Shown: in pieces, positions 15,349-64,000 of the stretch
Layout of the letters: each line of letters starts with the position of its first letter
Position numbering within the stretch: the first letter of the stretch is position 1
DNA from: Candidatus Acidiferrum sp.
GTDB taxonomy: Bacteria > Verrucomicrobiota > Verrucomicrobiia > Limisphaerales > UBA11358
Direction: 5' to 3'
DNA length: 64,000 nt
Assembly (NCBI GenBank): GCA_035506715.1
Contig: DATJOW010000095.1
Span: 5,393-69,392 of the forward strand
Notes under the pieces: model-generated
What the model was told of the DNA's origin: nothing
What the model saw: the letters and a program-made list of their open reading frames with translations, nothing else
The model's database searches: none
Translations under genes and position numbers: made by a program

Positions 15349-17109
15349 ATGAATGAAGAACCCAAAAGCATCTGGAAAAAATCGTTGACCGGCTGGTGCA
15401 TCCTGTCCGTTGTCGCGTTGCTTCTGGCTTTCGCGGGATTTCTAGCGGCGCTGGCGAGCAGTCTATTTCATTTCGACAACAGCAAACTTTTCGGCCTGTC
15501 TTTTTTTGTCAACTGGCTGATTCTCACCATTGGCGCGGCAGCCACCTTTCTGGTGTTGATCCTGCTCTTCCGCTTCATCCGGTGGCTGTATTGTTGGCGT
15601 AACTTCAAGCGATTTCTTTTCGCGGTCGCGTGTCTGGCCACACTGATCGCGTTGTTCTACGCCGAGGAAGACTGGCGCGGCAAACATGCCTGGGAAACAT
15701 TCAAACGCGAGTGGGAGGCCAAAGGCGAACGTTTCGATCGCGCCAGCGTGGTTCCGCCGCCGGTGCCGGACGACCAGAATTTTGCGCTGACGCCGATTGT
15801 CTTTACCAGTTACGGCCAATTGCTGACGCGCGACGGGAAATTCATTCCCTGGGCTGAACGCGACACCAACTTCGTCAACCGGCTGCAAGTGAACATTGGT
15901 GGCCCCCAGCCCTGGCCGACCAATGGTGATTGGCGCCTGGCGCGCGTCAGCGATTTAAGCGCCTGGCAACAGTATTATCGGGCCCTGGCCGCCAAAACGA
16001 ATCAGTTCCCCGTCCCGCCCCAACCGGTATCGCCCGCCGCCGATGTCCTCTTCGCGTTGGGCAAGTACGATTCAACGATCGAGGAGCTGCGGCAAGCCGG
16101 CCAACTGCCTGATTCACGTTTTCCGCTGGAATATGACAAGGATGACCCGGCGGCGATGCTGTTGCCGCACCTAGCGCCGCTGAAAAATTGCGCCCAGGTT
16201 TTACAATTGCGCGCCTTGGCGGAATTGCAGAACGGCCAAAGCGACCGGGCGCTGGCCGACGTAAAACTCATTTTGCGCCTGGCGGATTCGCTCCGCTCGG
16301 AGCCCATTCTGATTTCGCAGCTGGTCCGCGCTGCACTGGTGAATCTCGCGCTCCAGCCGATCTGGGAGGGGCTCCGGCAACGCCAATGGTCGGACGCCCA
16401 ATTGATCGAACTGGGAAATGACCTGGCGAAGACAGATTTTTTGGCTGCCAGCGAACTTGCCTTGCGCGGAGAACGCATCTGGGGTGTTGAAATCATAGAA
16501 TATTTGCGACATTTGACTTACCGGGAAAGGCTGCGCACCCTTTCCGCTTTTGGCAGCAATCTCAAACTCGAGGACGAAATTTTCCTTTGTCTCGGCCCGG
16601 CTGGATGGTTTGACCAAAGCGAACTCCGAATTAGTCGTTTCCTTCTCCGGCACTATTCGCCGGTGGTAAATCTTGACCGGCAAATAGTTTCTCCTGTTGC
16701 TGTGCGAAACGCGGATGAGGCATTCGGCGCGGAAGTTGGCCATTCCGGCAATGGTAATTTTTTTGAGCGATTATTACTGTCGGCCGCGGGCAACGTAGTG
16801 GAGAAATTAGCCTGCGGGCAAAATGCGGTGAACCTGGCGCGTACGGCCTGTGCGTTGGAGCGTTACCGCCTCGCGCATGGCCAATATCCGGAATCGCTGG
16901 ACGCGCTGGTGCCGCAATTCATCGCCCAGCCGCTGCATGATGTCATCAACGGCCAACCGCTGCATTATCGACGCACGAATGATGGCCAATTCGTCCTTTA
17001 TTCCGTCGGCTGGAACGAGACGGATGACGGCGGGGAAGTCGGCTTCACCAAACAAGGCGGTCTGGACATCAGCACCGGTGACTGGGTCTGGCAGTATCCG
17101 CAGAAATAA
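15349..17109 (+). CDS. Membrane protein, unknown function, with a GspG-like C-terminal motif
   Basis: Three N-terminal TM helices. The C-terminus LHYRRTNDGQFVLYSVGWNETDDGGEV resembles the conserved C-terminal sheet of type II secretion pseudopilins. Confidence 0.5.
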   Translation: MNEEPKSIWKKSLTGWCILSVVALLLAFAGFLAALASSLFHFDNSKLFGLSFFVNWLILTIGAAATFLVLILLFRFIRWLYCWRNFKRFLFAVACLATLIALFYAEEDWRGKHAWETFKREWEAKGERFDRASVVPPPVPDDQNFALTPIVFTSYGQLLTRDGKFIPWAERDTNFVNRLQVNIGGPQPWPTNGDWRLARVSDLSAWQQYYRALAAKTNQFPVPPQPVSPAADVLFALGKYDSTIEELRQAGQLPDSRFPLEYDKDDPAAMLLPHLAPLKNCAQVLQLRALAELQNGQSDRALADVKLILRLADSLRSEPILISQLVRAALVNLALQPIWEGLRQRQWSDAQLIELGNDLAKTDFLAASELALRGERIWGVEIIEYLRHLTYRERLRTLSAFGSNLKLEDEIFLCLGPAGWFDQSELRISRFLLRHYSPVVNLDRQIVSPVAVRNADEAFGAEVGHSGNGNFFERLLLSAAGNVVEKLACGQNAVNLARTACALERYRLAHGQYPESLDALVPQFIAQPLHDVINGQPLHYRRTNDGQFVLYSVGWNETDDGGEVGFTKQGGLDISTGDWVWQYPQK

Positions 17110-17110
17110 A

Positions 17111-17245
17111 AGCTCCAAGCTCCAACATCCAAGCTCCAGAGAAATCTCAAGCCTCAAGCGCCAAACCAAAACCATCATCGCCGCGTTTTCTTGTTTGGCT
17201 GTTGGAATTTCTCTGGAGCTTGGTGCCTGGAATTTGGGGGTTTTT
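17111..17245. repeat. Long imperfect inverted repeat built from period-7 units
   Basis: Left arm: AGCTCCA AGCTCCA ACATCCA AGCTCCA GAGAAAT CTCAAGC CTCAAGC GCCAAAC. The 17-nt core CCAAGCTCCAGAGAAAT (17129-17145) is perfectly complementary to 17207-17223. The element ends in GGGGGTTTTT. Confidence 0.75.
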
Positions 17246-21565: not shown

Positions 21566-21588
21566 TCTGGGCCAAGACCAAACGACCA

Positions 21589-21620
21589 CCCCCTTCCGCT
21601 AAAATCGGGAGGGGGTTTTT
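21589..21620 (+). terminator. Rho-independent terminator of the porin gene
   Basis: CCCCCTTCCG-ctaaaat-CGGGAGGGGG followed by TTTTT. Confidence 0.75.
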
Positions 21621-21715
21621 ATTTGCATTTACGATTTACGATTTACGATTTACGATTGCTCCGGGGCTCCGAAACGGTGGGAAAATCACAAATCATCAAT
21701 CGTAAATCATAAATG
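21621..21715 (+). repeat. Heptamer-array element: (ATTTACG)x4-ATTGC, 22-nt spacer, inverted array GGAAAAT CACAAAT CATCAAT CGTAAAT CATAAAT
   Basis: Read directly. The last unit plus G forms TAAATG, which contains the metF start (21713). It is homologous to the element at 36343..36419. Confidence 0.8.
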
Positions 21716-22606
21716 CCCGTTCATTTCATTCGCGACATTTACGCAGCCAAAGGGGCGGCCAAACAGCCGGTCATCTCTTTTGAATTTTTCCCTCCTAAAA
21801 CAGAGGAAGGGGACCGCGCCCTGCTGGAACGCCAGGTCCCGGCCCTGTTGGCGGCCCGGCCGGATTTTTGTTCCGTCACCTACGGCGCCGGCGGCAGCAC
21901 GCGCGACAAGACGCTGATGATTGTGGACCGCATTCAGCGGCAATACGGGTTGACGACGCTGGCGCATCTGACCTGTGTGGGCCACACCCGGGCGCAGGTG
22001 CAGGAGCTCCTGGAGAAAATCCGTGGGTTGGGCTGTAAAAATATCCTGGCCTTGCGCGGCGATCCTCCGGCGGGCGGCGTTTTTCAGCCGGCTCCCGGCG
22101 GTTTCGAATTCGCCGGGCAACTGGTCCGGCTCATCCGTGACGCGGGTGACTTCTCCATCGGGGTCGCCGGCTTTCCCGAGGGGCACCTTGCCTGTCCGGA
22201 CGGCAAGCAGGCCGACTGGTGGCACTTGCGCGAAAAGGTGGAGGCTGGCGCGGACTTTGTGCTGACCCAGCTGTTCTTTGACAACGCGGATTATTTTGAA
22301 TTTCGGGAGTACGTTGGCGGCCGCCTGGGGGTCCGCGTGCCATTGGTCCCGGGAATTGTGCCCATCCTGAGCGCCGGCCAAATCACAAAATTCATCCAGG
22401 TCTGTGGCGCCAAAATCCCGCCGCCGCTGCGCACCCGGCTTGATCAATTGGCGGAGGACGATGAGGCCGCCGCTGAATTTGGCATCGAGTACGCCACCCG
22501 CCAGTGCCAGGATTTGTTGCGGGCAGGCGTGCCCGGGTTGCATTTTTACACGCTGAACAAATCGCGGTCCACCGTCCAGGTGCTGAAGAACCTCGGTCTG
22601 GCCTGA
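21713..22606 (+). CDS. metF: 5,10-methylenetetrahydrofolate reductase MetF
   Basis: ISFEFFPPKT, VTYGAGGSTR, LTCVGH, TQLFFD motifs. 297 aa. Confidence 0.9.
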   Translation: MPVHFIRDIYAAKGAAKQPVISFEFFPPKTEEGDRALLERQVPALLAARPDFCSVTYGAGGSTRDKTLMIVDRIQRQYGLTTLAHLTCVGHTRAQVQELLEKIRGLGCKNILALRGDPPAGGVFQPAPGGFEFAGQLVRLIRDAGDFSIGVAGFPEGHLACPDGKQADWWHLREKVEAGADFVLTQLFFDNADYFEFREYVGGRLGVRVPLVPGIVPILSAGQITKFIQVCGAKIPPPLRTRLDQLAEDDEAAAEFGIEYATRQCQDLLRAGVPGLHFYTLNKSRSTVQVLKNLGLA

Positions 22607-30239: not shown

Positions 30240-30321
30240 GAATTAATTTTGGTTTGAGGGATGACGCTGCCATGCCGTTGCCAGGCGTGCGCCCGAAAGG
30301 GAACTCGCGGGCGGCAAAAGC

Positions 30322-32783: not shown

Positions 32784-32930
32784 AGACTAAAAGTGACGCA
32801 TTCGCCCCGGTTGCCAAGTTCAAAATGCCGCCCCAACGCGAAGAGGCTTTGTCCGGATGGATTTGCATGGTAAATTGCACGGGCCGAAATGAGCGTCACC
32901 ATCCAGTCTGAACCGGCAGGAGAGCAAACT

Positions 32931-32958
32931 CCGCCATCCGCCATCCGCCATCCGCCCT
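32931..32958. repeat. Heptamer tandem array (CCGCCAT)x3 + CCGCCCT inside the U32 N-terminus
   Basis: Read directly. Translates as PPSAIRHPP. Confidence 0.7.
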
Positions 32959-33822
32959 TGCCGGAGTTGCTCGCGCCCGCTGGGGACTGGGATTGCGTAC
33001 GCGCCGCGGTCGAGAACGGCGCCGATGCGATTTATTTCGGCCTCGAAAAATTCAACGCCCGGATGCGGGCGCAGAACTTCACCTCGGCCGATCTGCCTTG
33101 CTTGATGGATTTTCTGCACCGGCGCGGCGTGCGCGGCTATGTCACTCTCAACACGCTGGTTTTTGAGCAGGAACTCGCCGACGCCGAAAAATATTTGCGC
33201 ACGATGATCGCCGCCGGGGTGGACGCCGTCGTGGTCCAGGATGTGGGCATCTGCCGGCTGATCCGGCGGCTTTCGCCCGATTTACCGATTCACGCTTCGA
33301 CCCAGATGACCATCACCAGCGCCGCCGGCGTGGATTTCGCCCGCGACCTCGGCTGCAGCCTGGTCGTGCTCGCCCGCGAATGTTCCATCAAGGAAATCGA
33401 GAAAATCCAAGCCATACAAGGCAAGGCGGGCCGTCTCTTGCCCGCCGTATCCTCCTTTACCAACGACGGCGCGATAGCGACATCGCGCCCCACCATTCTC
33501 CCCCTGGAAGTTTTTGTCCACGGCGCTCTCTGCGTTGCTTACTCGGGCCAATGCCTGACCAGCGAGGCGCTCGGTGGTCGCTCGGCCAACCGCGGCGAAT
33601 GCGCCCAAGCCTGCCGCATGCCTTACGAACTCCTGTCCGACGGGCAACTCGTGCCGCTGGGTGACCGGAAATATCTGCTGAGCCCGCAGGACCTGGCCGG
33701 GCTGGACGTGTTGCCGGAATTGATTCGAGCGGGCGTGGCCTCGCTGAAAATCGAGGGCCGGCTCAAATCCCCCGAATACGTGGCGAATATCACGCGGATT
33801 TACCGCCAAGCGCTGGATAATT

Positions 33823-33890
33823 GCGGAATGCAGAATGCGGAATGTGAAATGCTATCTGCCTCAGCCAGTCCGAAATCCGAAATCCGAAAT
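33823..33890. repeat. Paired heptamer arrays GCGGAAT GCAGAAT GCGGAAT GTGAAAT / 19-nt spacer / (CCGAAAT)x3, at the U32 frameshift
   Basis: Read directly. Total length is 68 nt, which is not a multiple of 3. The left arm has 4 units and the right arm 3. Confidence 0.8.
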
Positions 33891-34649
33891 ATGAGATGGA
33901 GATGGCTTTCTCCCGCGGCTTGCACACCGGCTGGTTCGGCGGCACCAACAATCAGCAACTCGTACACGCCCGCTTCGGAAAAAAACGCGGGGTCTATCTC
34001 GGTGAAGTGAAAAAGGTTTTGCGCGACGCGGTTGTGGTCAAACTGAAAGGCCCGTTGAAGCCGGGCGACGGCGTGGTGTTTGACGCCGGCAAGCCGGCGG
34101 AACCCGAGGAGGGCGGGCGGGTTTACGAAATCCGAAAGGCAAGGCGCGGTGTCCCTACCGCGCCGAAAGCACGGCTCGCTACGGAGGGCGAGCCCCACCA
34201 GGTCGAACTCCATTTCGGCCGCGGCGACATCCATTTCGCGCGCGTTCACGTCGGCGACAAACTGTGGAAGACCAGCGACCCGGAACTGGACCGACGCCTC
34301 CGCCAAAGCTTCGCCGGTGCTACGCCCAGATTCCAGCGACCGATTGAAATCGAAGTGCACGGCATCGCCGGCAAGGCGCTGACCCTGATTGCCCATGATG
34401 AATTCGGCAACATTGCCAAAGTGGAATCATCCATGCCGCTGGCCCGGGCGGATAAACATCCGCTCACGACGGACCGTTTGCGCGAACAATTGGGCCGGTT
34501 GGGGGGCACGCCGTTCCGGCTCGGTGGGTTAAAAAACCTTTTGTCGGGTGACGTGCTGCTGCCGGTCAGCGAGCTGAATCGCTTGCGCCGCGAAATCGTC
34601 GGCGAACTGGAAAGGCGGCGCACCCAGCCTAAGCGTTGGACGCTTTCTG

Positions 34650-34733
34650 ATTGCCGGTTGCCGGTTGCCGATTGCCGATTGAGCGACGATGCGGGCGCAG
34701 CCAAAAATCCGCAATCCGCAATCCGCAATCCGC
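34650..34733. repeat. Paired inverted heptamer arrays ATTGCCG GTTGCCG GTTGCCG ATTGCCG / 28-nt spacer / (AATCCGC)x4, in frame inside the U32 gene
   Basis: 84 nt = 28 codons. Translates as DCRLPVADCRLSDDAGAAKNPQSAIRNPQ. The arms are complementary at 5-6 of 7 positions per unit. Confidence 0.8.
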
Positions 34734-34873
34734 AATTGATTGTTCTGGTCCGCAACCTGCCCCAACTCGAAGCCGCGCTGAAATGCGGGGTGACAACCGT
34801 CTATTGCGAATTTGAAGACCCCAAGAAATACCGCGACGCGGTCACGCTGTTCCACGCGGCCTTCGATCGCCAA

Positions 34874-34930
34874 GGTAGGCCGGGCGGTCCTCTGCCCGCC
34901 GGCGGCGCGCACGGAGTGACGCGCCCTACC
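34874..34930. repeat. REP-like nested palindrome (57 nt), in frame inside the U32 gene
   Basis: Outer stem GGTAGG/CCTACC. Inner hairpin GGCGCG-cacggagtga-CGCGCC plus an imperfect CCGGGCGG/CCCGCCGG hairpin. Translates as GRPGGPLPAGGAHGVTRPT. Confidence 0.65.
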
Positions 34931-35627
34931 ATCTGGGTTGCGCCTCCAAGAATTTTCAAGCCGGGCGAGGACTGGACGCTGGAACAGGTGCGCTCCGGCA
35001 ACGCCGATGGTTATTTAATCCGCAATTACGATCACTTGAAATTCTTCGCGAACGACCGGCGCGTCGGTGATTACTCGCTCAACATCGCCAACCGGCTGGC
35101 GGCGGATTATTTCAAGAACCCATGCGGCCTGGAGCGGGTGACGGCGAGCTACGATTTGAATTTCCAGCAGCTCGAAGCGTTGTTGACCGCCGCGCCGCCC
35201 GAGTGGTTCGAGGTGACCATCCACCAGCACATGCCGATGTTTCACATGGAGCATTGCGTGTTCTGCGCGTTCCTTTCCACCGGCACGGACTTCCGGAACT
35301 GCGGCCGCCCCTGCGACGTGCACGACGTGAAGCTGCGCGACCGCATGGGCGCGGAGCATCCGGTGAAGGCCGACGTCGGCTGCCGCAACACGGTGTTCAA
35401 CGCGCTGGCCCAGACCGGCGCGGAATATGTGTCGCGGATGATCGAACTGGGCGTGCGACATTTCCGCGTGGAATTCCTCAACGAAGCGCCGGAACAGGTG
35501 ATGCAAACCATTGCCAAGTATCATCAGCTATTGCGCGGTGAAATCACCGGCACGCAGCTCTGGCGCAAATTGAAACTGTTCAACCAGCTCGGCGTCACCC
35601 GGGGGCAAATCGGGAAGTAGAACAGGC

Positions 35628-36338
35628 TTACTGGTAGAAGTATCCCAACTCGCGCAGCGATGCGTAGTCCTTCGGCCGGTCCGGTGTGGCACGGCCGATG
35701 ATGATGTGGTCCAGCACCTCGATTTTCAAAAGCTGGCCGGCGCGGATTAAATCGCGCGTCACCTTGATGTCCGCCTCGCTGGGCGTGGGGTCGCCGCTGG
35801 GATGGTTGTGCACCAGCACAATGGCCGCCGCGTTGGCCGCGATGGCCGACCGGAACACCTCGCGCGGATGCACCAGGATGGTGTCGAGCGTGCCGTGCGA
35901 AATGTCCTCCACCCGGATCAGCCGCCGCCGCGTGTTCAACAGGAGCGCCTGGAAGGTTTCGACGCTTTTCACCAGGTTTTGCTCGCGCAGCAGCCGGACG
36001 ATGGCCTCCGGATTGTCGAGCACCGGCGATTCGCGCTGCAAATCCTTGGCCATCGCGCGGGCCAGCGCAAACGCGGCCACCAGCGTCACCGCCTTGTCGC
36101 GCCCGATGCCCTTGACGGTCTGCAAATCGTCCACCGAAGTTTGGGCCAATGACTGGAGAGTGCCGAATTTGTGGAGCAGTTGCCGGCCGATTTCGACGGC
36201 GTTGGCGCCTTTCAGGCCGGTGCGCAGCAGGATGGCGACCAGTTCGGCGTGCGTCAGAGCGTCCGGCCCGCGCTCGGCCAACCGTTCGCGCGGCCGTTCG
36301 CTCAGCGGCTGGTCCTTCAGTCGCAGCCCCTCTGACAT
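35628..36338 (-). CDS. radC: RadC-family JAB-domain protein
   Basis: N-terminal HhH region (ERLAERGPDALTHAELVAILLRTG) and the C-terminal JAMM motif LVHNHPSGDPTPSEAD. Confidence 0.9.
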   Translation of the reverse strand: MSEGLRLKDQPLSERPRERLAERGPDALTHAELVAILLRTGLKGANAVEIGRQLLHKFGTLQSLAQTSVDDLQTVKGIGRDKAVTLVAAFALARAMAKDLQRESPVLDNPEAIVRLLREQNLVKSVETFQALLLNTRRRLIRVEDISHGTLDTILVHPREVFRSAIAANAAAIVLVHNHPSGDPTPSEADIKVTRDLIRAGQLLKIEVLDHIIIGRATPDRPKDYASLRELGYFYQ

Positions 36339-36342
36339 GGTG

Positions 36343-36419
36343 ATTTACGATTTACGATTTACAATTTACGATTGCAACTCAATTTCAACGCCGCCCGTGT
36401 CAAGCGTCAATCGTAAATG
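36343..36419 (+). repeat. Second copy of the heptamer-array element: ATTTACG ATTTACG ATTTACA ATTTACG ATTGC, spacer, CGTCAAT CGTAAAT
   Basis: Shares (ATTTACG)n-ATTGC and the 12-mer TCAATCGTAAAT with 21621..21715. Its TAAATG contains the start of the AddA-like gene (36417). The left end begins 4 nt from the radC start codon. Confidence 0.8.
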
Positions 36420-39400
36420 GCATCATCGAACAAAGACAAAAACCCTCTGACCGAGGCGCAGCGGGAAGCCGTGAAAGCGCGCGGCAACGTGCTCGTCATG
36501 GCCGGCGCCGGCACCGGCAAAACCCACACTCTGGTCGAGCGCTGCCTGCATTGCCTTTGCGAGGAGCGGCCGCCCGCGTCGCTCGAGGAAATCGTCGTCG
36601 TTACCTTCACCGAAGCCGCCGCCGCCGAGATGCGCCAGCGCCTGCGCGAGCGGCTGGAGGAAAAACTCAAGGCGGAGCCCGACGAACCGCGCTGGGTGGA
36701 ACAGCTCACCCTCTTCGACACGGCCCACATTGGCACGCTCCACAGCTTCTGTCTTAAGCTCATCCGCGAACATTTCCATGCCCTCGGCCTCGATCCGCAG
36801 CTGGCCGTGCTCGACGAGGGTGAGGCCCGGCTGCTCGCCGAGGAAACGCTCGAAGCCGAATTGCAGGGCCACTACGCCGGCAAAAGCGAGCCGGCCAAAG
36901 CCGTTCAGCAATTGATCCAGGTTTACGGGGGCGGGCGTGACGAGGCCATCCGCCGGCTGGTCCTGCGACTGCACCACTACGCCCAAACCCGGCCCGATGC
37001 CGACGGCTGGCTGGCGCGGCAGATTGAAAAATTTTCGGTCCCTACCCCGGACGAGTGGCAAAAGTGGCTGCTCGCGGCGATTCAGGATTGGCGCGACGAA
37101 TGGCTGCCGGCTCTGGCAGCCCTTGGAACGCCGAACTCCAATTCGGCACGTTTCCGGGCGGATGACCTTCAAGGCGAACCGGAGTTCGGCGCTCCACCGG
37201 CAAACGAGAAAGCCGCCGAAATGGAGGGTGTTCTCCGGTTGTTGCCCGCTGATTTTTCGCGCGAAGCCGCCGCTGAAATTCTGGCGCAAATCATCGCCGC
37301 CGATGGTCAATGGCCGGCAAAACGCAAAACCGTCTTGCGCAAACCGCTGGCCGGCTTTTTTGATGACGCCCGTTTTCTCCTCTCCCTCGCGGCGGTTAAA
37401 AACGGCGCCGATCCGCTGGCTGAAGACTGGGCCCCGATCCGGAGCCACATGGACGCATTGCTGCGCCTGACTCAGGGGTTTGCCGCCCGGTTCGCGGCCC
37501 GCAAGCGCGAGGAGGGCGTCCTGGATTTCCACGACCTGGAACAATTCGCCCTGAAACTGCTCTGGGATTCTTCGACGGGCCGGCCGAGCGCCATCGCCGG
37601 CCGCTGGCGGGAAAAAATCCGGTTTGTCTTCGTGGACGAATACCAGGATATCAACGCCGCGCAGGATAAAATCATCCAAGCGTTGAGCCGGGAGGGATCC
37701 GCGGCGAATCGCTTCCTGGTTGGCGATGTGAAACAAAGCATTTACCGGTTCCGGCTGGCTGACCCGGAAATTTTCCGCACCTACGCTCAAACCTGGCGCG
37801 GCAAAAAGGGCCGGACCATCCCGCTCACCGAAAACTTTCGCAGCCGCGAGGGCTTGCTCGATTTCGTCAATGCGGTCTTCCAGCCGCTCCTGCGCGAGGA
37901 CATCGGCGGCATTGGCTATGACGCCGAGGCGCAATTGCAGTTTGGCGCGCCGCAGTCGCGCACTCCGCTTGGCACCGCCACCGATCCGGCGCCGCGCGCC
38001 GAATTGCTTCTGCGCCTCAAGTCCGGCCGCGATGACACGGCGTCGGGCGACAGCGATGGCGACGACGAACTCGCGGATTTGCTGGACACGGAGAAGGAGG
38101 CGCGCTGGCTGGCGCAGCGGCTGAAAGAATTGCACGAGGCCGGGCATAGAATTGTCTGGGACGAGAAACAACAGGTTTCCCGTCCAGCGGAATGGCGCGA
38201 CATGGCGGTGTTGTTGCGGGCGCCGGCCGGCAAAGCGGAAGTTTATGCGAAGGAATTCCAGGGCGCCGGGGTGCCGCTGGTCGTCGCGCGCGGCGGGTTC
38301 TATGACAGCAGCGAAATTCTGGATTTGCTGAGCCTGCTGCAATTGCTTGACAACCCTTTGCAGGACGTGCCGGTCATTGCGGTGCTGCGGTCGCCGCTGG
38401 TGGGGCTGTCGCTTGACGAGCTTGCTCAAATCCGGCTGGCGGCCAGGGGCCATTTCTGGACGGCGCTGAACCGAGCGCGGGTTGCGGATTGCGGATTACG
38501 GAAGGAAACGACGCACAAAATCGGAAAATTTCTGGAGCGGTTCCCGCGCTGGCGGCGACTGGCGCGGCAGGGATCGCTGTCACAGTGTCTGGAAAGCGTG
38601 CTGGGGGAAACGTTTTACGCCGACTGGCTGGCCGCCCGGCCGCGCGGAGCGCAGCGGCGGGCCAAGATTGAGCGCCTGCTGGCGCTGACGCAAAAGTTCG
38701 ATCAATTGCCGCGGCAGGGGCTGTTCCGCTTCCTGCAATTTATCGAAGCGCAGCGCGAGACCGGGGCTGAACCGGAGGTCGGCGCGGTTCCCGGCGAAGA
38801 TGCAGTGCGGCTGATGAGCATCCACCAGAGCAAGGGTTTGGAGTTCCCGATCGTCGCGCTGGCCGACCTCGCAAAACCGTTCAACACCCAGGAGCTTCGC
38901 AGTGAAATCATTTTGGATGGAACCTACGGCCTTTGCCCAATTGTCCAGTCCCGGAATCGGATGTCAGGTTATCCCAGCCTGCCGCACTGGCTGGCACGGT
39001 CGCATCAGCGCCGCGAACAATGGGGCGAGGAATTGCGCCTGCTCTACGTCGCCCTGACCCGAGCCCGCGATTTTCTCCTCCTGACCGGCACCGTTTCCAA
39101 AAAGAAAGGGGAGATGCTGGGGACCGGGTCCCCGCCCTTGACGACCCCCGCCATCCTCGCGGCCAACAGTTATGCTGACTGGCTCGGCTTATGGTTGGGC
39201 GGACAGCCGGCTCCAAATGGGATCGGCGGCAACTTGCCGTATTTGCGCTGGCGGCTGGCGGAGGATGCCGAATTGCTGGTGGAATCACCGGGAGCAGCGG
39301 TGGAATCAGGACCGCCGGCTTGGGACCCGCAAACCGGGCCGGCCCTGCAAAAGAGGCTGGCCTGGGATTATCCGTTCGCCGCAGCCACCCGCCGCGCGGC

Positions 39401-40067
39401 CAAGACCACCGTCACCACGTTGCGCCGGCAGGCGACCGAGGAACCGGAAGATGAGGCGGAGGCGCTGTTTCGGGTTTCTCGTTTTCCGCTTTCAGCCGGA
39501 CGGCGCGCCAAAAGAGGCTCGGCCACACAATTGAGCGCGGCTGACACCGGCACGGCTCACCATAAATTCCTGCAACACTTCGCGCTGGACGCCGCGTCAT
39601 CGGTCGCAGCGCTGGAGGCGGAGGCGAATCGTCTGGAACGGGCGAGGATCCTTTCGGCCGCCGAGGGTGCGGCCTTGAATTTGTCGGACATCGCGGCGTT
39701 CTGGAACTCGGACCCGGGAAAACGAATCCGCGCTCAAGCCACCCAGCTTCGGCGCGAACTGGCATTCACCGCGCGCTTCAGCCCGGCGGAACTGGAAACC
39801 GCCACCGGGGTGAAGGCGGCGCCCGGATTGGAGGACGAATTCGTCATCGTGCAAGGCGTGGCGGATCTCGTCACGCTGTTGCCGCAGGAAATCTGGCTGG
39901 TAGATTTTAAGACGGATGATATCCCGGCGGGGGAACTGGCGGGACGGGTTCAGGCCTATGCTCCGCAGCTGAGATTGTACGCGATGGCGCTGGAAAGAAT
40001 TTATGGACGGCCGGTTACGAACCGCTGGCTGCATTTTTTGGCCAGCCGCCGGACGGAGAAGATTTAA
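36417..40067 (+). CDS. UvrD/Rep-type helicase fused to a PD-(D/E)XK nuclease (AddA/PcrA-like)
   Basis: Walker A AGAGTGKT, motif II FVDEYQD, later helicase motifs (TIHQSKGLEF, YVALTRAR). C-terminal nuclease motif QGVADLV...IWLVDFKTD. 1216 aa. Confidence 0.85.
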   Translation: MASSNKDKNPLTEAQREAVKARGNVLVMAGAGTGKTHTLVERCLHCLCEERPPASLEEIVVVTFTEAAAAEMRQRLRERLEEKLKAEPDEPRWVEQLTLFDTAHIGTLHSFCLKLIREHFHALGLDPQLAVLDEGEARLLAEETLEAELQGHYAGKSEPAKAVQQLIQVYGGGRDEAIRRLVLRLHHYAQTRPDADGWLARQIEKFSVPTPDEWQKWLLAAIQDWRDEWLPALAALGTPNSNSARFRADDLQGEPEFGAPPANEKAAEMEGVLRLLPADFSREAAAEILAQIIAADGQWPAKRKTVLRKPLAGFFDDARFLLSLAAVKNGADPLAEDWAPIRSHMDALLRLTQGFAARFAARKREEGVLDFHDLEQFALKLLWDSSTGRPSAIAGRWREKIRFVFVDEYQDINAAQDKIIQALSREGSAANRFLVGDVKQSIYRFRLADPEIFRTYAQTWRGKKGRTIPLTENFRSREGLLDFVNAVFQPLLREDIGGIGYDAEAQLQFGAPQSRTPLGTATDPAPRAELLLRLKSGRDDTASGDSDGDDELADLLDTEKEARWLAQRLKELHEAGHRIVWDEKQQVSRPAEWRDMAVLLRAPAGKAEVYAKEFQGAGVPLVVARGGFYDSSEILDLLSLLQLLDNPLQDVPVIAVLRSPLVGLSLDELAQIRLAARGHFWTALNRARVADCGLRKETTHKIGKFLERFPRWRRLARQGSLSQCLESVLGETFYADWLAARPRGAQRRAKIERLLALTQKFDQLPRQGLFRFLQFIEAQRETGAEPEVGAVPGEDAVRLMSIHQSKGLEFPIVALADLAKPFNTQELRSEIILDGTYGLCPIVQSRNRMSGYPSLPHWLARSHQRREQWGEELRLLYVALTRARDFLLLTGTVSKKKGEMLGTGSPPLTTPAILAANSYADWLGLWLGGQPAPNGIGGNLPYLRWRLAEDAELLVESPGAAVESGPPAWDPQTGPALQKRLAWDYPFAAATRRAAKTTVTTLRRQATEEPEDEAEALFRVSRFPLSAGRRAKRGSATQLSAADTGTAHHKFLQHFALDAASSVAALEAEANRLERARILSAAEGAALNLSDIAAFWNSDPGKRIRAQATQLRRELAFTARFSPAELETATGVKAAPGLEDEFVIVQGVADLVTLLPQEIWLVDFKTDDIPAGELAGRVQAYAPQLRLYAMALERIYGRPVTNRWLHFLASRRTEKI
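37129..37191. repeat. 63-nt palindromic segment in frame inside the helicase gene
   Basis: 11-nt perfect inverted termini CGCCGAACTCC / GGAGTTCGGCG. Terminal mini-hairpins CCGAA..TTCGG and CGAAC-cgga-GTTCG. Encodes the low-complexity stretch PNSNSARFRADDLQGEPEFG. Confidence 0.5.
38481..38501. repeat. Heptamer tandem array GTTGCGG ATTGCGG ATTACGG inside the helicase gene
   Basis: Read directly. Same unit family as 33823 and the reverse complement of 34706-34733. Confidence 0.6.
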
Positions 40068-62084: not shown

Positions 62085-64000
62085 ATGAAAAAGACCGAGA
62101 AAACTATCAAACCCAACAGTCTTTTCCGGCGGCTGGCCGGGACTTTGACAGGTGTTCTGCTGTGGCTAGGCGTCCTGCCTCTGGCCGCGCTCGGCCAGGC
62201 CAACTACGCCACCCCCTACACCTTCATCACCATCGCCGGGAAAAGCTTCTATGGTAGCGCGGACGGGACGAATGGCGCCGCGCAGTTCGCTTTTCCTTTC
62301 GGCACGGCGGTGGACAGCGCGGGCAATATCTTCGTGGCGGACGCAGCGAACTGCACGATTCGGGAAGTGACGCCGGTCGGAACCAATTGGGTAGTGACGA
62401 CCTTGGTCGGACAGGCGGGCAGCGCCGGCACCAATGACGGGACGGGGAACGCCGCGCGGTTCAACGGCCCTGGCGGTGTGGCCGTGGACACGAGCGGCAA
62501 CGTCTATGTGGCGGACACAGGCAACCACACGATCCGAAAAGTGACGCCGGTGGGCGCGAATTGGGTGGTGACGACCCTGGCCGGACTGGGTGGCAGTGCC
62601 GGCAGCGCGAACGGGACGGGGAGTGCCGCCCGGTTTTATTTTCCTCAGGACGTGGCGGTGGACAGCGCGGACAACGTGTATGTGGCGGACTCACTCAACG
62701 ACACCATCCGCAAAGTGACACCAGCGGGGGCAGTGACGACCCTGGCCGGACTGGCGTTCACTGAAGGCACGTCCGACGGAACGGGGAGCGCCGCCCGGTT
62801 CCACTTTCCTCTTGGCGTCACGGTGGATAGCGGGGGCAACGTCTATGTGGCCGACACAGCCAACGCCACCATCCGCAAAGTGACGTCAGCGGGTGTGGTG
62901 ACGACCTGGGCGGGACTGGCGGGCTATAGAGGAACCAACGACGGCACGGGGAACGCCGCGCGGTTTAGCGGGGCGGTTGGCGTGACAGTGGACAACGCCG
63001 GCAACCTCTATGTCGCGGATTACATGAACAATACGATTCGACAAGTGACCCCGGCGCGGCTGGTGACGACCCTAGCCGGCGGGCCGGGCTACAATGCAGG
63101 GAGCGCGGACGGGACGGGGAATGAGGCGCAGTTTTCTTATCCTTATGGCGTGGCGGTGGACAGCGCAGGCAACGTCTACGTGGCGGACACAGGCAACGAC
63201 ACGATCCGGGAAATAATGCCGGTCGGACCCAATTGGGTGGTGACGACGATCGCCGGACACCCAGGCGTTGCCGGCAGCGCGAACGGGACTGGAACCGCCG
63301 CGCGGTTTAACGGGCCTTACGACGTGGCGGTGGACAGTCTGGGCAACCTTTATGTGGCGGACGATTTGAACGACACGATCCGGAAAGTGACGCCGGTCGG
63401 ACCTAATTGGGTGGTGACGACGATTGCCGGATACCCAGGGGTTGACGGCAGCGCGAACGGGACGAACAGCGCCGCGCGGTTTAATTATCCTCAGGGTGTG
63501 GCGGTGGACAACGCGGGTAATCTCTATGTGGCGGATCAAAACAACTCCACCATTCGGGAGGTGGCGCCGGTCGGAACCAATTGGGTGGTGACGACGATTG
63601 CGGGATCCCCAGGTCGTCCTGGCAGCGCGGACGGGACGAACAACGCCGCGCGGTTTTATTATCCTAAGGGCGTGGCGGTGGACACGAACGGCAATGTCTA
63701 TGTGGCGGACCAATTCAACGACACGATCCGAGAAATAACGCCGGTTGGAACGAATTGGGTGGTGACGACTCTGGCCGGACTGGCAGGCGATCATGCCAGC
63801 GCGGACGGGACGAACAGTGCCGCGCGGTTTGCTTATCCTCAGGGTGTGGCGGTGGACAGCGCAGGCAATCTCTATGTGGCGGATGGTGACAACTTCTCAA
63901 TCCGCAAAATGACGCCGGTCGGAACCAATTGGGTAGTGACGACCCTCGCTGGTCAGTCGGGCTATTTTGCCGAGATAGACGGGACGGGGAGCGCCGCGCG
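62085..64000 (+). CDS. Secreted NHL-repeat beta-propeller protein (3' end beyond the window)
   Basis: Open-ended, so absent from the ORF track. ATG at 62085, signal peptide ...LLWLGVLPLAALGQA. At least ten units of xGxADGTGxAARFxxPxGVAVDxxGNxYVADxxNxTIRKVTPxGxxWVVTTLAG. All listed minus-strand ORFs here are shadows. Confidence 0.85.
   Translation, partial: MKKTEKTIKPNSLFRRLAGTLTGVLLWLGVLPLAALGQANYATPYTFITIAGKSFYGSADGTNGAAQFAFPFGTAVDSAGNIFVADAANCTIREVTPVGTNWVVTTLVGQAGSAGTNDGTGNAARFNGPGGVAVDTSGNVYVADTGNHTIRKVTPVGANWVVTTLAGLGGSAGSANGTGSAARFYFPQDVAVDSADNVYVADSLNDTIRKVTPAGAVTTLAGLAFTEGTSDGTGSAARFHFPLGVTVDSGGNVYVADTANATIRKVTSAGVVTTWAGLAGYRGTNDGTGNAARFSGAVGVTVDNAGNLYVADYMNNTIRQVTPARLVTTLAGGPGYNAGSADGTGNEAQFSYPYGVAVDSAGNVYVADTGNDTIREIMPVGPNWVVTTIAGHPGVAGSANGTGTAARFNGPYDVAVDSLGNLYVADDLNDTIRKVTPVGPNWVVTTIAGYPGVDGSANGTNSAARFNYPQGVAVDNAGNLYVADQNNSTIREVAPVGTNWVVTTIAGSPGRPGSADGTNNAARFYYPKGVAVDTNGNVYVADQFNDTIREITPVGTNWVVTTLAGLAGDHASADGTNSAARFAYPQGVAVDSAGNLYVADGDNFSIRKMTPVGTNWVVTTLAGQSGYFAEIDGTGSAA

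Follow-up and report, generated by a model that had tools for sequence, protein, structure and literature searches.

Inverted pairs of heptanucleotide repeat arrays at the start codons of metF and an addA-like gene

The DNA analysed here, referred to as the window, is a stretch of 64,000 nucleotides of contig DATJOW010000095.1 (assembly GCA_035506715.1). It contains two sites at which a tandem array of the heptanucleotide ATTTACG is followed by a short spacer and then by units in the inverted orientation that run into the start codon of a gene. At site 1 this gene is metF (methylenetetrahydrofolate reductase) and at site 2 it encodes an AddA-like helicase–nuclease. A preliminary description of the window had taken the two sites as related copies of one heptamer-array element with an inverted arm, and this is borne out by the sequence, by Tandem Repeats Finder (TRF) and by counts of a shared 14-mer.

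The two sites and their start codons

Site 1 begins directly after the T-run of the intrinsic terminator of a porin (BBP2) gene. This terminator (21588–21616 plus the T-run) has an 11-bp stem with eight GC pairs, followed by TTTTATTT. On the plus strand the left arm reads ATTTGC (21621–21626), four copies of ATTTACG (21627–21654) and ATTGC (21655–21659), and was reported by TRF as a period-7 repeat of 4.4 copies with 100% matches. The right arm consists of five inverted, degenerate units (GGAAAAT, CACAAAT, CATCAAT, CGTAAAT and CATAAAT; 21680–21714), reported as period 7 with 4.6 copies and 80% matches; it has a single G in ~30 nt (about 21683–21712). The string GGAAAATCAC is present in this arm at 21680–21689. 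The features of site 1 are as follows.

21588–21625, plus strand: intrinsic terminator of the upstream porin (BBP2) gene, stem and T-run; kept in loci L122 and L123
21621–21659, plus strand: left arm, ATTTGC + (ATTTACG)x4 + ATTGC (sequence, TRF)
21660 to ~21682, plus strand: spacer of ~21 nt, unique and GC-rich, with a CCG-AAA-CGG apical hairpin (sequence, folding)
About 21683–21712, plus strand: right arm, AAAATCAC AAATCAT CAATCGT AAATCAT AA (TRF); pairs with the left arm
21713–22606, plus strand: metF (PF02219; orthologue aligned from residue 1)

The open reading frame (ORF) at 21713–22606 (plus strand) matches Pfam MTHFR (PF02219) and is metF. Its ATG is the first start codon past an in-frame TAA stop and corresponds, in the alignment, to the first residue of the orthologue in L122 (82% identical). 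The first two bases of this ATG are donated by the last repeat unit of the right arm, and a TAA (21710–21712) lies immediately 5' of it. The resulting TAAATG had been read as a stop/start junction; the TAA does adjoin the metF ATG, but no known gene stops there, only a hypothetical 29-codon upstream ORF with a TTG start (21623–21712) that spans both arms. The geometry of this upstream ORF would be that of termination–reinitiation.

Site 2 is located between divergent genes, a radC-like gene on the minus strand (35628–36338) and the addA-like gene on the plus strand. Its left arm (36343–36375) reads ATTTACG ATTTACG ATTTACA ATTTACG ATTGC, and its right arm (36405–36418) consists of CGTCAAT and CGTAAAT, the latter running into the addA-like start as TAA-ATG. 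The ATG at 36417 opens a 1216-residue UvrD/PDDEXK (AddA-like) ORF, the N-terminus of which was aligned with 28 homologues. Both copies adjoin real start codons, as the preliminary description had it. On its own strand radC reads (CGTAAAT)n-CACC-ATG, with the array directly upstream of the start, and CGTAAAT units therefore run into the starts of three genes: metF, addA and radC. The features of site 2 are as follows.

35628–36338, minus strand: radC-like gene (PF04002 RadC in L201/L202, 99.9% identical to the window)
36343–36375, plus strand: left arm (sequence, TRF); on the minus strand, (CGTAAAT)n-CACC-ATG before radC
36376–36404, plus strand: spacer of 29 nt, unique, without similarity to the site-1 spacer (sequence)
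36405–36418, plus strand: right arm, CGTCAAT CGTAAAT (sequence); stem of ~10 bp
36417–40067, plus strand: AddA-like helicase–nuclease gene (PF00580, PF13361, PF12705)

Among named proteins, the best homologues of the AddA-like product come from Verrucomicrobiota, Limisphaerales and Verrucomicrobiia, so that an assignment of the window to the Planctomycetes–Verrucomicrobia–Chlamydiae group is reasonable. The NCBI label on the proteins of this metagenome-assembled genome (MAG) is 'Candidatus Acidoferrum sp.' (Acidobacteriota), in contrast to these verrucomicrobial homologues; the label is probably a case of mis-binning or mislabelling.

The 12-mer TCAATCGTAAAT is found exactly at 21696–21707 and at 36407–36418. 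For the 14-mer ATTTACGATTTACG, with up to two mismatches allowed, nine matches were found against 0.24 expected, and all nine are at sites 1 and 2. The two sites have the repeat units alone in common, and their spacers are unrelated. This bears on the proposal that the copies are a mobile palindrome, similar to a miniature inverted-repeat transposable element (MITE) or a repetitive extragenic palindrome (REP), that inserts at TAAATG or beside start codons. An 11-bp inverted core (ATTTACGATTG ... CAATCGTAAAT) is indeed common to both copies, the ATTTACG unit occurs at two loci 15 kb apart, locus L130 has CATCAATCGTAAATC upstream of yebC, and relatives have REP-like palindromes at the same permissive sites. 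However, the strings shared by the copies amount to just two repeat units, the arms differ in unit number and degeneracy, and the spacers are unrelated not only between the two copies but also among those of other phyla. No flanking direct repeats or target-site duplication were seen by eye, no systematic search having been made. On these grounds the MITE-like reading with a TAAATG target, which the preliminary description had offered, was rejected; we regard it as very unlikely.

Period-7 arrays in the window and in other genomes

Arrays were called over four units with at least 80% lag matches. By this measure the window has nine period-7 segments, one of period 6 and none of periods 5, 8, 9 or 10. 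The nine arrays fall at six sites within the 64 kb and about half of them are inside genes. Those away from sites 1 and 2 are listed here.

17110–17138, plus strand: (AAGCTCC)x4, directly after the stop codon of the gene at 15349–17109
32925–32962, plus strand: (TCCGCCA)x4, at the extreme 5' end of the U32 peptidase gene (repeat scan)
33822–33851, plus strand: TGCGGAA-like units, x3–4, in U32 linker 1 (repeat scan)
33866–33898, plus strand: (TCCGAAA)x3, in U32 linker 1; one unit fewer than in L201, L202 and P0003, giving a frameshift
34642–34684, plus strand: (GATTGCC/GGTTGCC)x4.7, in frame in U32 linker 2, left arm of a hairpin (repeat scan, folding)
34701–34740, plus strand: (AATCCGC)x4.4, in frame in U32 linker 2, right arm of the hairpin; orthologous pair in L204
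38475–38504, plus strand: (GCGGATT)x3–4, in frame inside the addA-like gene; array position common to many homologues

The coding hairpin of U32 linker 2 (34642/34701) has a predicted energy of −40.8 kcal/mol, with six of seven positions paired per unit. The ATTTACG unit has 71% A+T in a window of 60.6% G+C; read as ATTTACG/CGTAAAT it contains a single G and so is without G-tracts for a G-quadruplex. Upstream of the window genes the lag-7 match fraction is 0.25 after the four array genes are removed. There is no 7-nt periodicity before the other genes, so leaders in general do not have such arrays. At the end of the window (62306–64000), TRF reported long degenerate tandem repeats of ~165–174 nt and 348 nt, which may encode a large protein with NHL-type β-propeller repeats.

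When 185,579 species genomes were scanned for (ATTTACG)3, at least 118 DNA stretches matched, compared with less than one expected by chance in a rough calculation. The matches listed are from Bacteroidota, Verrucomicrobiota (Akkermansia among them), Chloroflexota, Acidobacteriota, Armatimonadota, cyanobacteria and further groups; some are in isolate genomes and some in long-read MAG chromosomes. Contigs of IMG/VR contain (ATTTACG)3 in 43 cases and (AATCCGC)3 in 54, against 4, 6 and 41 for three composition-matched controls. Some heptamers are thus favoured among viral contigs, ATTTACG not uniquely so. The further copies anticipated in the preliminary description therefore exist within the window, in other genomes and in viral contigs.

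Among the (ATTTACG)3 loci listed there are 293 period-7 arrays, 145 of which are of other units, while periods 5, 6, 8 and 9 give 6–21. Loci picked by a YebC scan regardless of arrays have 14 period-7 arrays in 206 kb from close relatives and 11 in 420 kb from distant ones, with 0–6 arrays for other periods. Period 7 is the sole enriched repeat period in the window and in related and unrelated genomes.

The layout of site 1 also recurs: (ATTTACG)n, a unique and mostly GC-rich spacer and (CGTAAAT)m are found in this order in many phyla among the matches listed. In the same set, an inverted partner within 120 nt lies downstream of 16–20 of 126 arrays and upstream of 8–12 of them (shuffled-unit controls, ~0–3), and the spacers of copies in other phyla are unrelated to one another. 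Some such copies directly precede an ATG, for example in L119 and in L011, where the gene reads like an rfbA-type start. The orientation of 130 arrays of other phyla and their distance to start codons were also tabulated. This test is confounded, since the CGTAAAT strand has stops in all frames and the opposite strand is open, and no conclusion was drawn from it. A universal GATT/GAT core of the units, conspicuous in the window, was considered and rejected as a rule: ~7–10 of 22–25 arrays from loci picked regardless of arrays have it, against ~20% expected.

In five Akkermansia MAG loci (L037, L051, L059, L076 and L095), AATTC-(ATTTACG)3-4-ATTTG is followed by a GCGCGC-type hairpin and then by GAATTTTG. 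This element resembles a terminator-like hairpin with a heptamer array 5' of the stem and has no Rfam match. Locus L074 (1280–1560), from a MAG likewise labelled Ca. Acidoferrum, has the pairs GAGTCTN/NAGACTC and ATTTACG/CGTAAAT 130 nt apart in one intergenic region.

In some pairs the two units are unrelated, as at 33822/33867 in the window and in L006, L014 and L019. Chi-site arrays, or an origin of the inverted pairs from telomerase-like healing of double-strand breaks, would not fit such pairs, nor would they fit the presence of multiple units per genome.

Chance similarity or an assembly artefact would have in its favour the low complexity of the sequence and nothing else. The matches are far above the shuffle expectation, identical arrays are present in independent assemblies from different samples, and arrays are found in isolate genomes and long-read MAG chromosomes as well. 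This explanation is refuted by the shuffle statistics, the independent assemblies and the isolate genomes, and its probability is negligible.

Array turnover, folding and interpretation

Five near-identical contigs from other samples (L001, L002, L201, L202 and L203; 99.7–100% identity) were compared with the window. Over 10,177 nt L202 departs from the window solely by an additional TCCGAAA unit at 33867; L201 has the identical extra unit and five substitutions. The three-unit allele of the window frameshifts the U32 peptidase gene into ORFs at 32889–34010 and 33896–35620, whereas the four-unit allele encodes the intact 912-residue U32 protein P0003, which was found in three contigs. The gene is a single ORF in the relatives L121 and L123, and the frameshifted and intact alleles are each present in several independent assemblies. 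Whole-unit change of 7 nt is real and can be the fastest type of change in this DNA. In one relative, a REP-like palindrome lies in frame in the U32 linker, exactly at the position of heptamer arrays of the window.

The porin–metF spacer of L122 and L123 (metF 82 and 76% identical, respectively) is ~300 nt in length; the porin terminator is kept and there are no heptamer arrays. Upstream of addA, L123 and L204–L207 have spacers of 137–277 nt without ATTTACG arrays, while the radC–addA spacer of the window is 78 nt. The two genes are adjacent in L123, L204, L205 and L207, and L206 has an extra gene between them. Because arrays are missing at these orthologous loci, those at metF and addA are recent, lineage-specific replacements of ancestral leader and promoter regions and not conserved regulators. 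The radC–addA spacers of L123, L204 and L205 have in common the motif (G)AAAATCACGC(G/T)GAAAAAT, and heptamer arrays are present there instead in the window (36339–36416), where GGAAAATCAC is found not at this place but in the right arm of the metF element. REP-like palindromes (GTAGCAGCCGACGT... and GGAGCCGACGTGAGGAGGCTCA...) are found in relatives (L122, 11695–12060; L123, 6765–6862 and 18788–19119), in the porin–metF spacer and, in the one case mentioned above, in the U32 linker.

The site-1 RNA is predicted to fold into a long hairpin with interruptions, of which the AUG is part (−30.2 kcal/mol, z = −3.6, none of 200 shuffles as good), and the single-stranded DNA folds with −19.4 kcal/mol (z = −3.8). 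When the left arm is left out, the metF leader (21660–21760) has less structure than nearly all shuffles (197 of 200; z = +1.85). Rfam gave no match for the whole window at gathering thresholds or for the metF leader at E values up to 1, and gave a single unrelated tRNA and nothing else on 12 related loci.

From these results, the element is probably a lineage-specific pair of inverted heptanucleotide simple sequence repeat (SSR) arrays and a member of a genome-wide period-7 population. It probably also belongs with the heptamer SSRs of cyanobacteria, known as short tandemly repeated repetitive (STRR) sequences, and those of Xanthomonas, Beggiatoaceae and Haemophilus. Slipped-strand mispairing, seen at one array, would also grow, shrink and homogenize the others. 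To judge from the architecture, the inverted arm may be the product of intramolecular template switching about the GC hairpin in the centre. The heptamer arrays have taken the place of ancestral leaders in the window, the right arm probably providing metF, addA and radC with a leader that is predicted to be A/U-rich, G-poor and unstructured, that would hold stops in all three frames and that would donate the first two bases of the ATG. If transcribed, the left arm would pair with the leader (−30 kcal/mol at site 1) and occlude the AUG, and gain or loss of units would then alter stem length and expression in 7-nt steps. A tunable effect of the arrays on expression is plausible, and it would resemble a contingency locus more than a conserved riboregulator.

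Several observations weigh against reading the arrays as products of slippage that set expression through stem length. In the five near-identical contigs the metF and addA arrays do not vary in unit number; L203 has 31 substitutions in 11.4 kb, yet both arrays are unchanged. Unit number does vary in the U32 sister array, in line with the slippage put forward earlier, but not at the two start codons themselves in these contigs. The site-2 stem (ATTTACGATT / AATCGTAAAT, ~10 bp) is not better than shuffles (z = −0.84). A σ70 scan of sites 1 and 2 gave no site of at least 9/12, so that a promoter was not placed. One codon position in addA has near-perfect arrays of ~4 units in five lineages, with units that differ between them.

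Window, 38475–38504: GCGGATT
L204, 10073–10092: GCGGATT
L205, 9582–9614: AATCCAG
L206, 10139–10167: CCACAGT
L207, 10057–10084: AATTCAG

A translated heptamer array is present at this position over at least 8/9 residues in 39 of 114 homologues and over at least 7/9 in 65 of the 114, compared with two of 114 that reach 7/9 at random positions. No seven-residue periodic repeats were found in 120 AddA homologues, as the arrays are too short for them. Upstream of yebC, seven relatives (L126, L128, L137, L138, L145, L146 and L147) have an inverted heptamer pair, GAGTTGATGGTTGATAG ... CTATCAACTNTCAACTC, whose arms are 77–78% identical, compared with 66% for the third codon positions of yebC and 45% for the spacer; just three pairs in this set are changed on both sides. 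Finally, a small vocabulary of units (ATTTACG; AATCCGC/GCGGATT; TCCGAAA; CTCTCAA) recurs across loci and genomes.

The yebC pair, in the form GAGTTGATGGTTGATAG ... CTATCAACTCTCAAC, ends ~20 nt (three more degenerate units) before the ATG. Further relatives retain the right arm alone, and L130 carries CATCAATCGTAAATC at this place; the window has a degenerate remnant of the pair only (30240–30320, minus strand). Fixed positions are not limited to addA. The 5' end of the U32 gene has heptamer arrays of differing units in the window, L121 (CTCCGCA), L123 and L206 (CCATCCG), and in the 20-kb loci L204–L207 the U32 and addA genes account for 32% of the DNA but hold all 17 period-7 arrays, with none in the remaining ~12 genes of each locus or between genes.

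The persistence at the addA site, the conservation of the yebC arms and the unit vocabulary suggest constraint or an active process, slippage alone being insufficient, and point to concerted evolution within the arrays under some constraint. A stronger form of this idea, in which the arrays of this verrucomicrobial lineage, and perhaps those of bacteria at large, are not passive microsatellites but are actively maintained at fixed sites by a unit-specific process and act as reversible 7-nt switches, we regard as rather unlikely. A dedicated heptad-recognizing protein or a templated repair or extension activity may be considered as candidates for such maintenance. If it were true, there would be frameshift switches in housekeeping genes (addA and the U32 peptidase gene) and leader or hairpin switches at the starts of metF, addA, radC and yebC.

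The same data bear on a dedicated cis-regulatory hairpin in the 5' leader, for which both arms would be transcribed, the stem would sequester the AUG, and translation would be freed by RNase III cleavage or when temperature or a chaperone melts the stem. The site-1 stem is significant and takes in the AUG, the right arm is unstructured by itself (z = +1.85), and in the yebC pairs of seven relatives both arms, and not the spacer, are conserved above the level of synonymous sites. A precedent is the heptamer 5'-UTR hairpin of H. influenzae hmw1A (PMC12721329). However, the orthologous metF and addA loci are without arrays, the stem at site 2 is weak, and the right arm is degenerate with no compensatory pattern seen, the yebC set offering just three double-sided pairs. 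In addition, the left arm is immediately preceded by a terminator, and no promoter was placed for it. The long stem that had been thought to bury the start codon is found at site 1 (−30.2 kcal/mol, z = −3.6) but not at site 2 (~10 bp, z = −0.84). A conserved hairpin is not supported: the metF loci of L122 and L123 and the addA loci of L123 and L204–L207 lack these arrays, and Rfam gave no match. Overall, we consider a dedicated regulatory hairpin doubtful.

A further possibility is that the arrays are operators for a heptad-binding protein, or A+T-rich UP-element or promoter DNA that replaced the ancestral promoters. Arrays fill the intergenic DNA that must hold the promoters of metF, radC and addA. 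The unit is 71% A+T, and the array contains TTTACG-N17-TACGAT (found by hand), an 8/12 match to the σ70 consensus. Binding of heptads is known for ToxT and H-NS on the TTTTGAT repeats of ctxAB and for Streptomyces antibiotic regulatory proteins (SARP) on heptameric direct repeats, and the ω repressor of plasmid pSM19035 binds direct and inverted heptads, of which operators of the ω type are built. However, one regulator does not fit the many differing units in 64 kb and the location of half of the arrays within coding regions. Furthermore, the ATTTACG unit is found in many unrelated phyla, no promoter-like site of at least 9/12 is present, and no candidate binding protein was identified. We consider this explanation unlikely.

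Comparison with known heptamer systems

Heptamer repeats have been known since 1990, when STRR were described, and are still without an accepted origin or function. The window adds Verrucomicrobiota, for which our literature search found no description of heptamer arrays, and the same unit and layout recur across many phyla and viral contigs. It also provides natural experiments: the one-unit frameshift polymorphism of the U32 gene, the addA array that is fixed in place while its units turn over, and the start-abutting arrays that replace leaders. With these, neutral slippage, contingency switching and a structural or protein-binding function become testable. For annotation, a gene that looks split or 'frameshifted' in a genome of this type may differ from its intact form by one heptamer unit.

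Rickettsia palindromic elements and REP or bacterial interspersed mosaic elements (BIME) are short intergenic palindromes that form families with a conserved full-length sequence, whereas here the 7-nt unit alone is shared and the arms are tandem arrays. Rickettsia palindromic elements also insert in frame into protein linkers, and the U32 and AddA arrays likewise lie in frame in protein. Among the STRR, the unit of STRR1 is CCCCAGT; we know of no description of STRR as inverted pairs that abut start codons.

STRR are tandem heptanucleotides dispersed in cyanobacterial genomes, with several unit families and no known function according to the account in a later paper (Mazel et al., 1990, via PMC4692102), which also refers to a report from 2007 of heptamer SSR over-representation in bacteria (Mrazek, Guo & Shah). 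The analogy drawn in the preliminary description is supported: the window likewise has dispersed tandem heptanucleotides of several unit families per genome without a known function. The differences are the phylum and the unit sequences, those of the cyanobacterial STRR not being those of the window arrays.

The belief that inverted-pair versions or versions at start codons had not been described is wrong in general, in view of precedents from Xanthomonas (PMC4692102), the TAACTGA repeats (PMC4679880), Nostoc (bioRxiv 10.1101/2022.06.06.494920) and hmw1A (PMC12721329). In Xanthomonas, GGGAATC forms dispersed tandem arrays, typically of ~4 units, which are ~90% intergenic (Rehm et al., 2015, PMC4692102). 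Each genome has 70–75 convergent inverted pairs capable of forming stem-loops, and length and sequence vary between close species (PMC4692102). The likeness to the window lies in the tandem heptamer arrays set close together in convergent inverted pairs. However, the window units are not G-rich and form no G-quadruplex, several units coexist, and half of the arrays are within genes. The Xanthomonas arrays are also nearer to the 3' end of the upstream gene, whereas the right arm here adjoins a start codon.

In Beggiatoaceae, cyanobacteria and Bacteroidetes, TAACTGA repeats are located a few nucleotides upstream of starts and strains differ by 7-nt indels (MacGregor, 2015, PMC4679880), and TTTTGAA/TTCAAAA heptamers of Nostoc overlap start codons (bioRxiv 10.1101/2022.06.06.494920). 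These share with the window arrays the position near or over starts, the sense-strand stop codons in the unit, the occurrence in scattered phyla and the 7-nt indels, and a translational role has been proposed for them. Unlike the window arrays, which have an inverted partner arm and several unit families, they are almost always direct (with one indirect case in BOGUAY) and have one dominant unit.

The (ATCTTTC)n repeat of H. influenzae hmw1A forms a 5'-UTR hairpin that was shown by experiment to be processed by RNase III, and unit number sets expression (PMC12721329). Its right arm is non-repetitive and G-rich, whereas both arms are arrays here, and the gene is that of an adhesin, whereas housekeeping genes are concerned in the window. 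In both cases a heptamer SSR lies upstream of the gene with a hairpin in the 5' leader, which at metF is predicted from the sequence.

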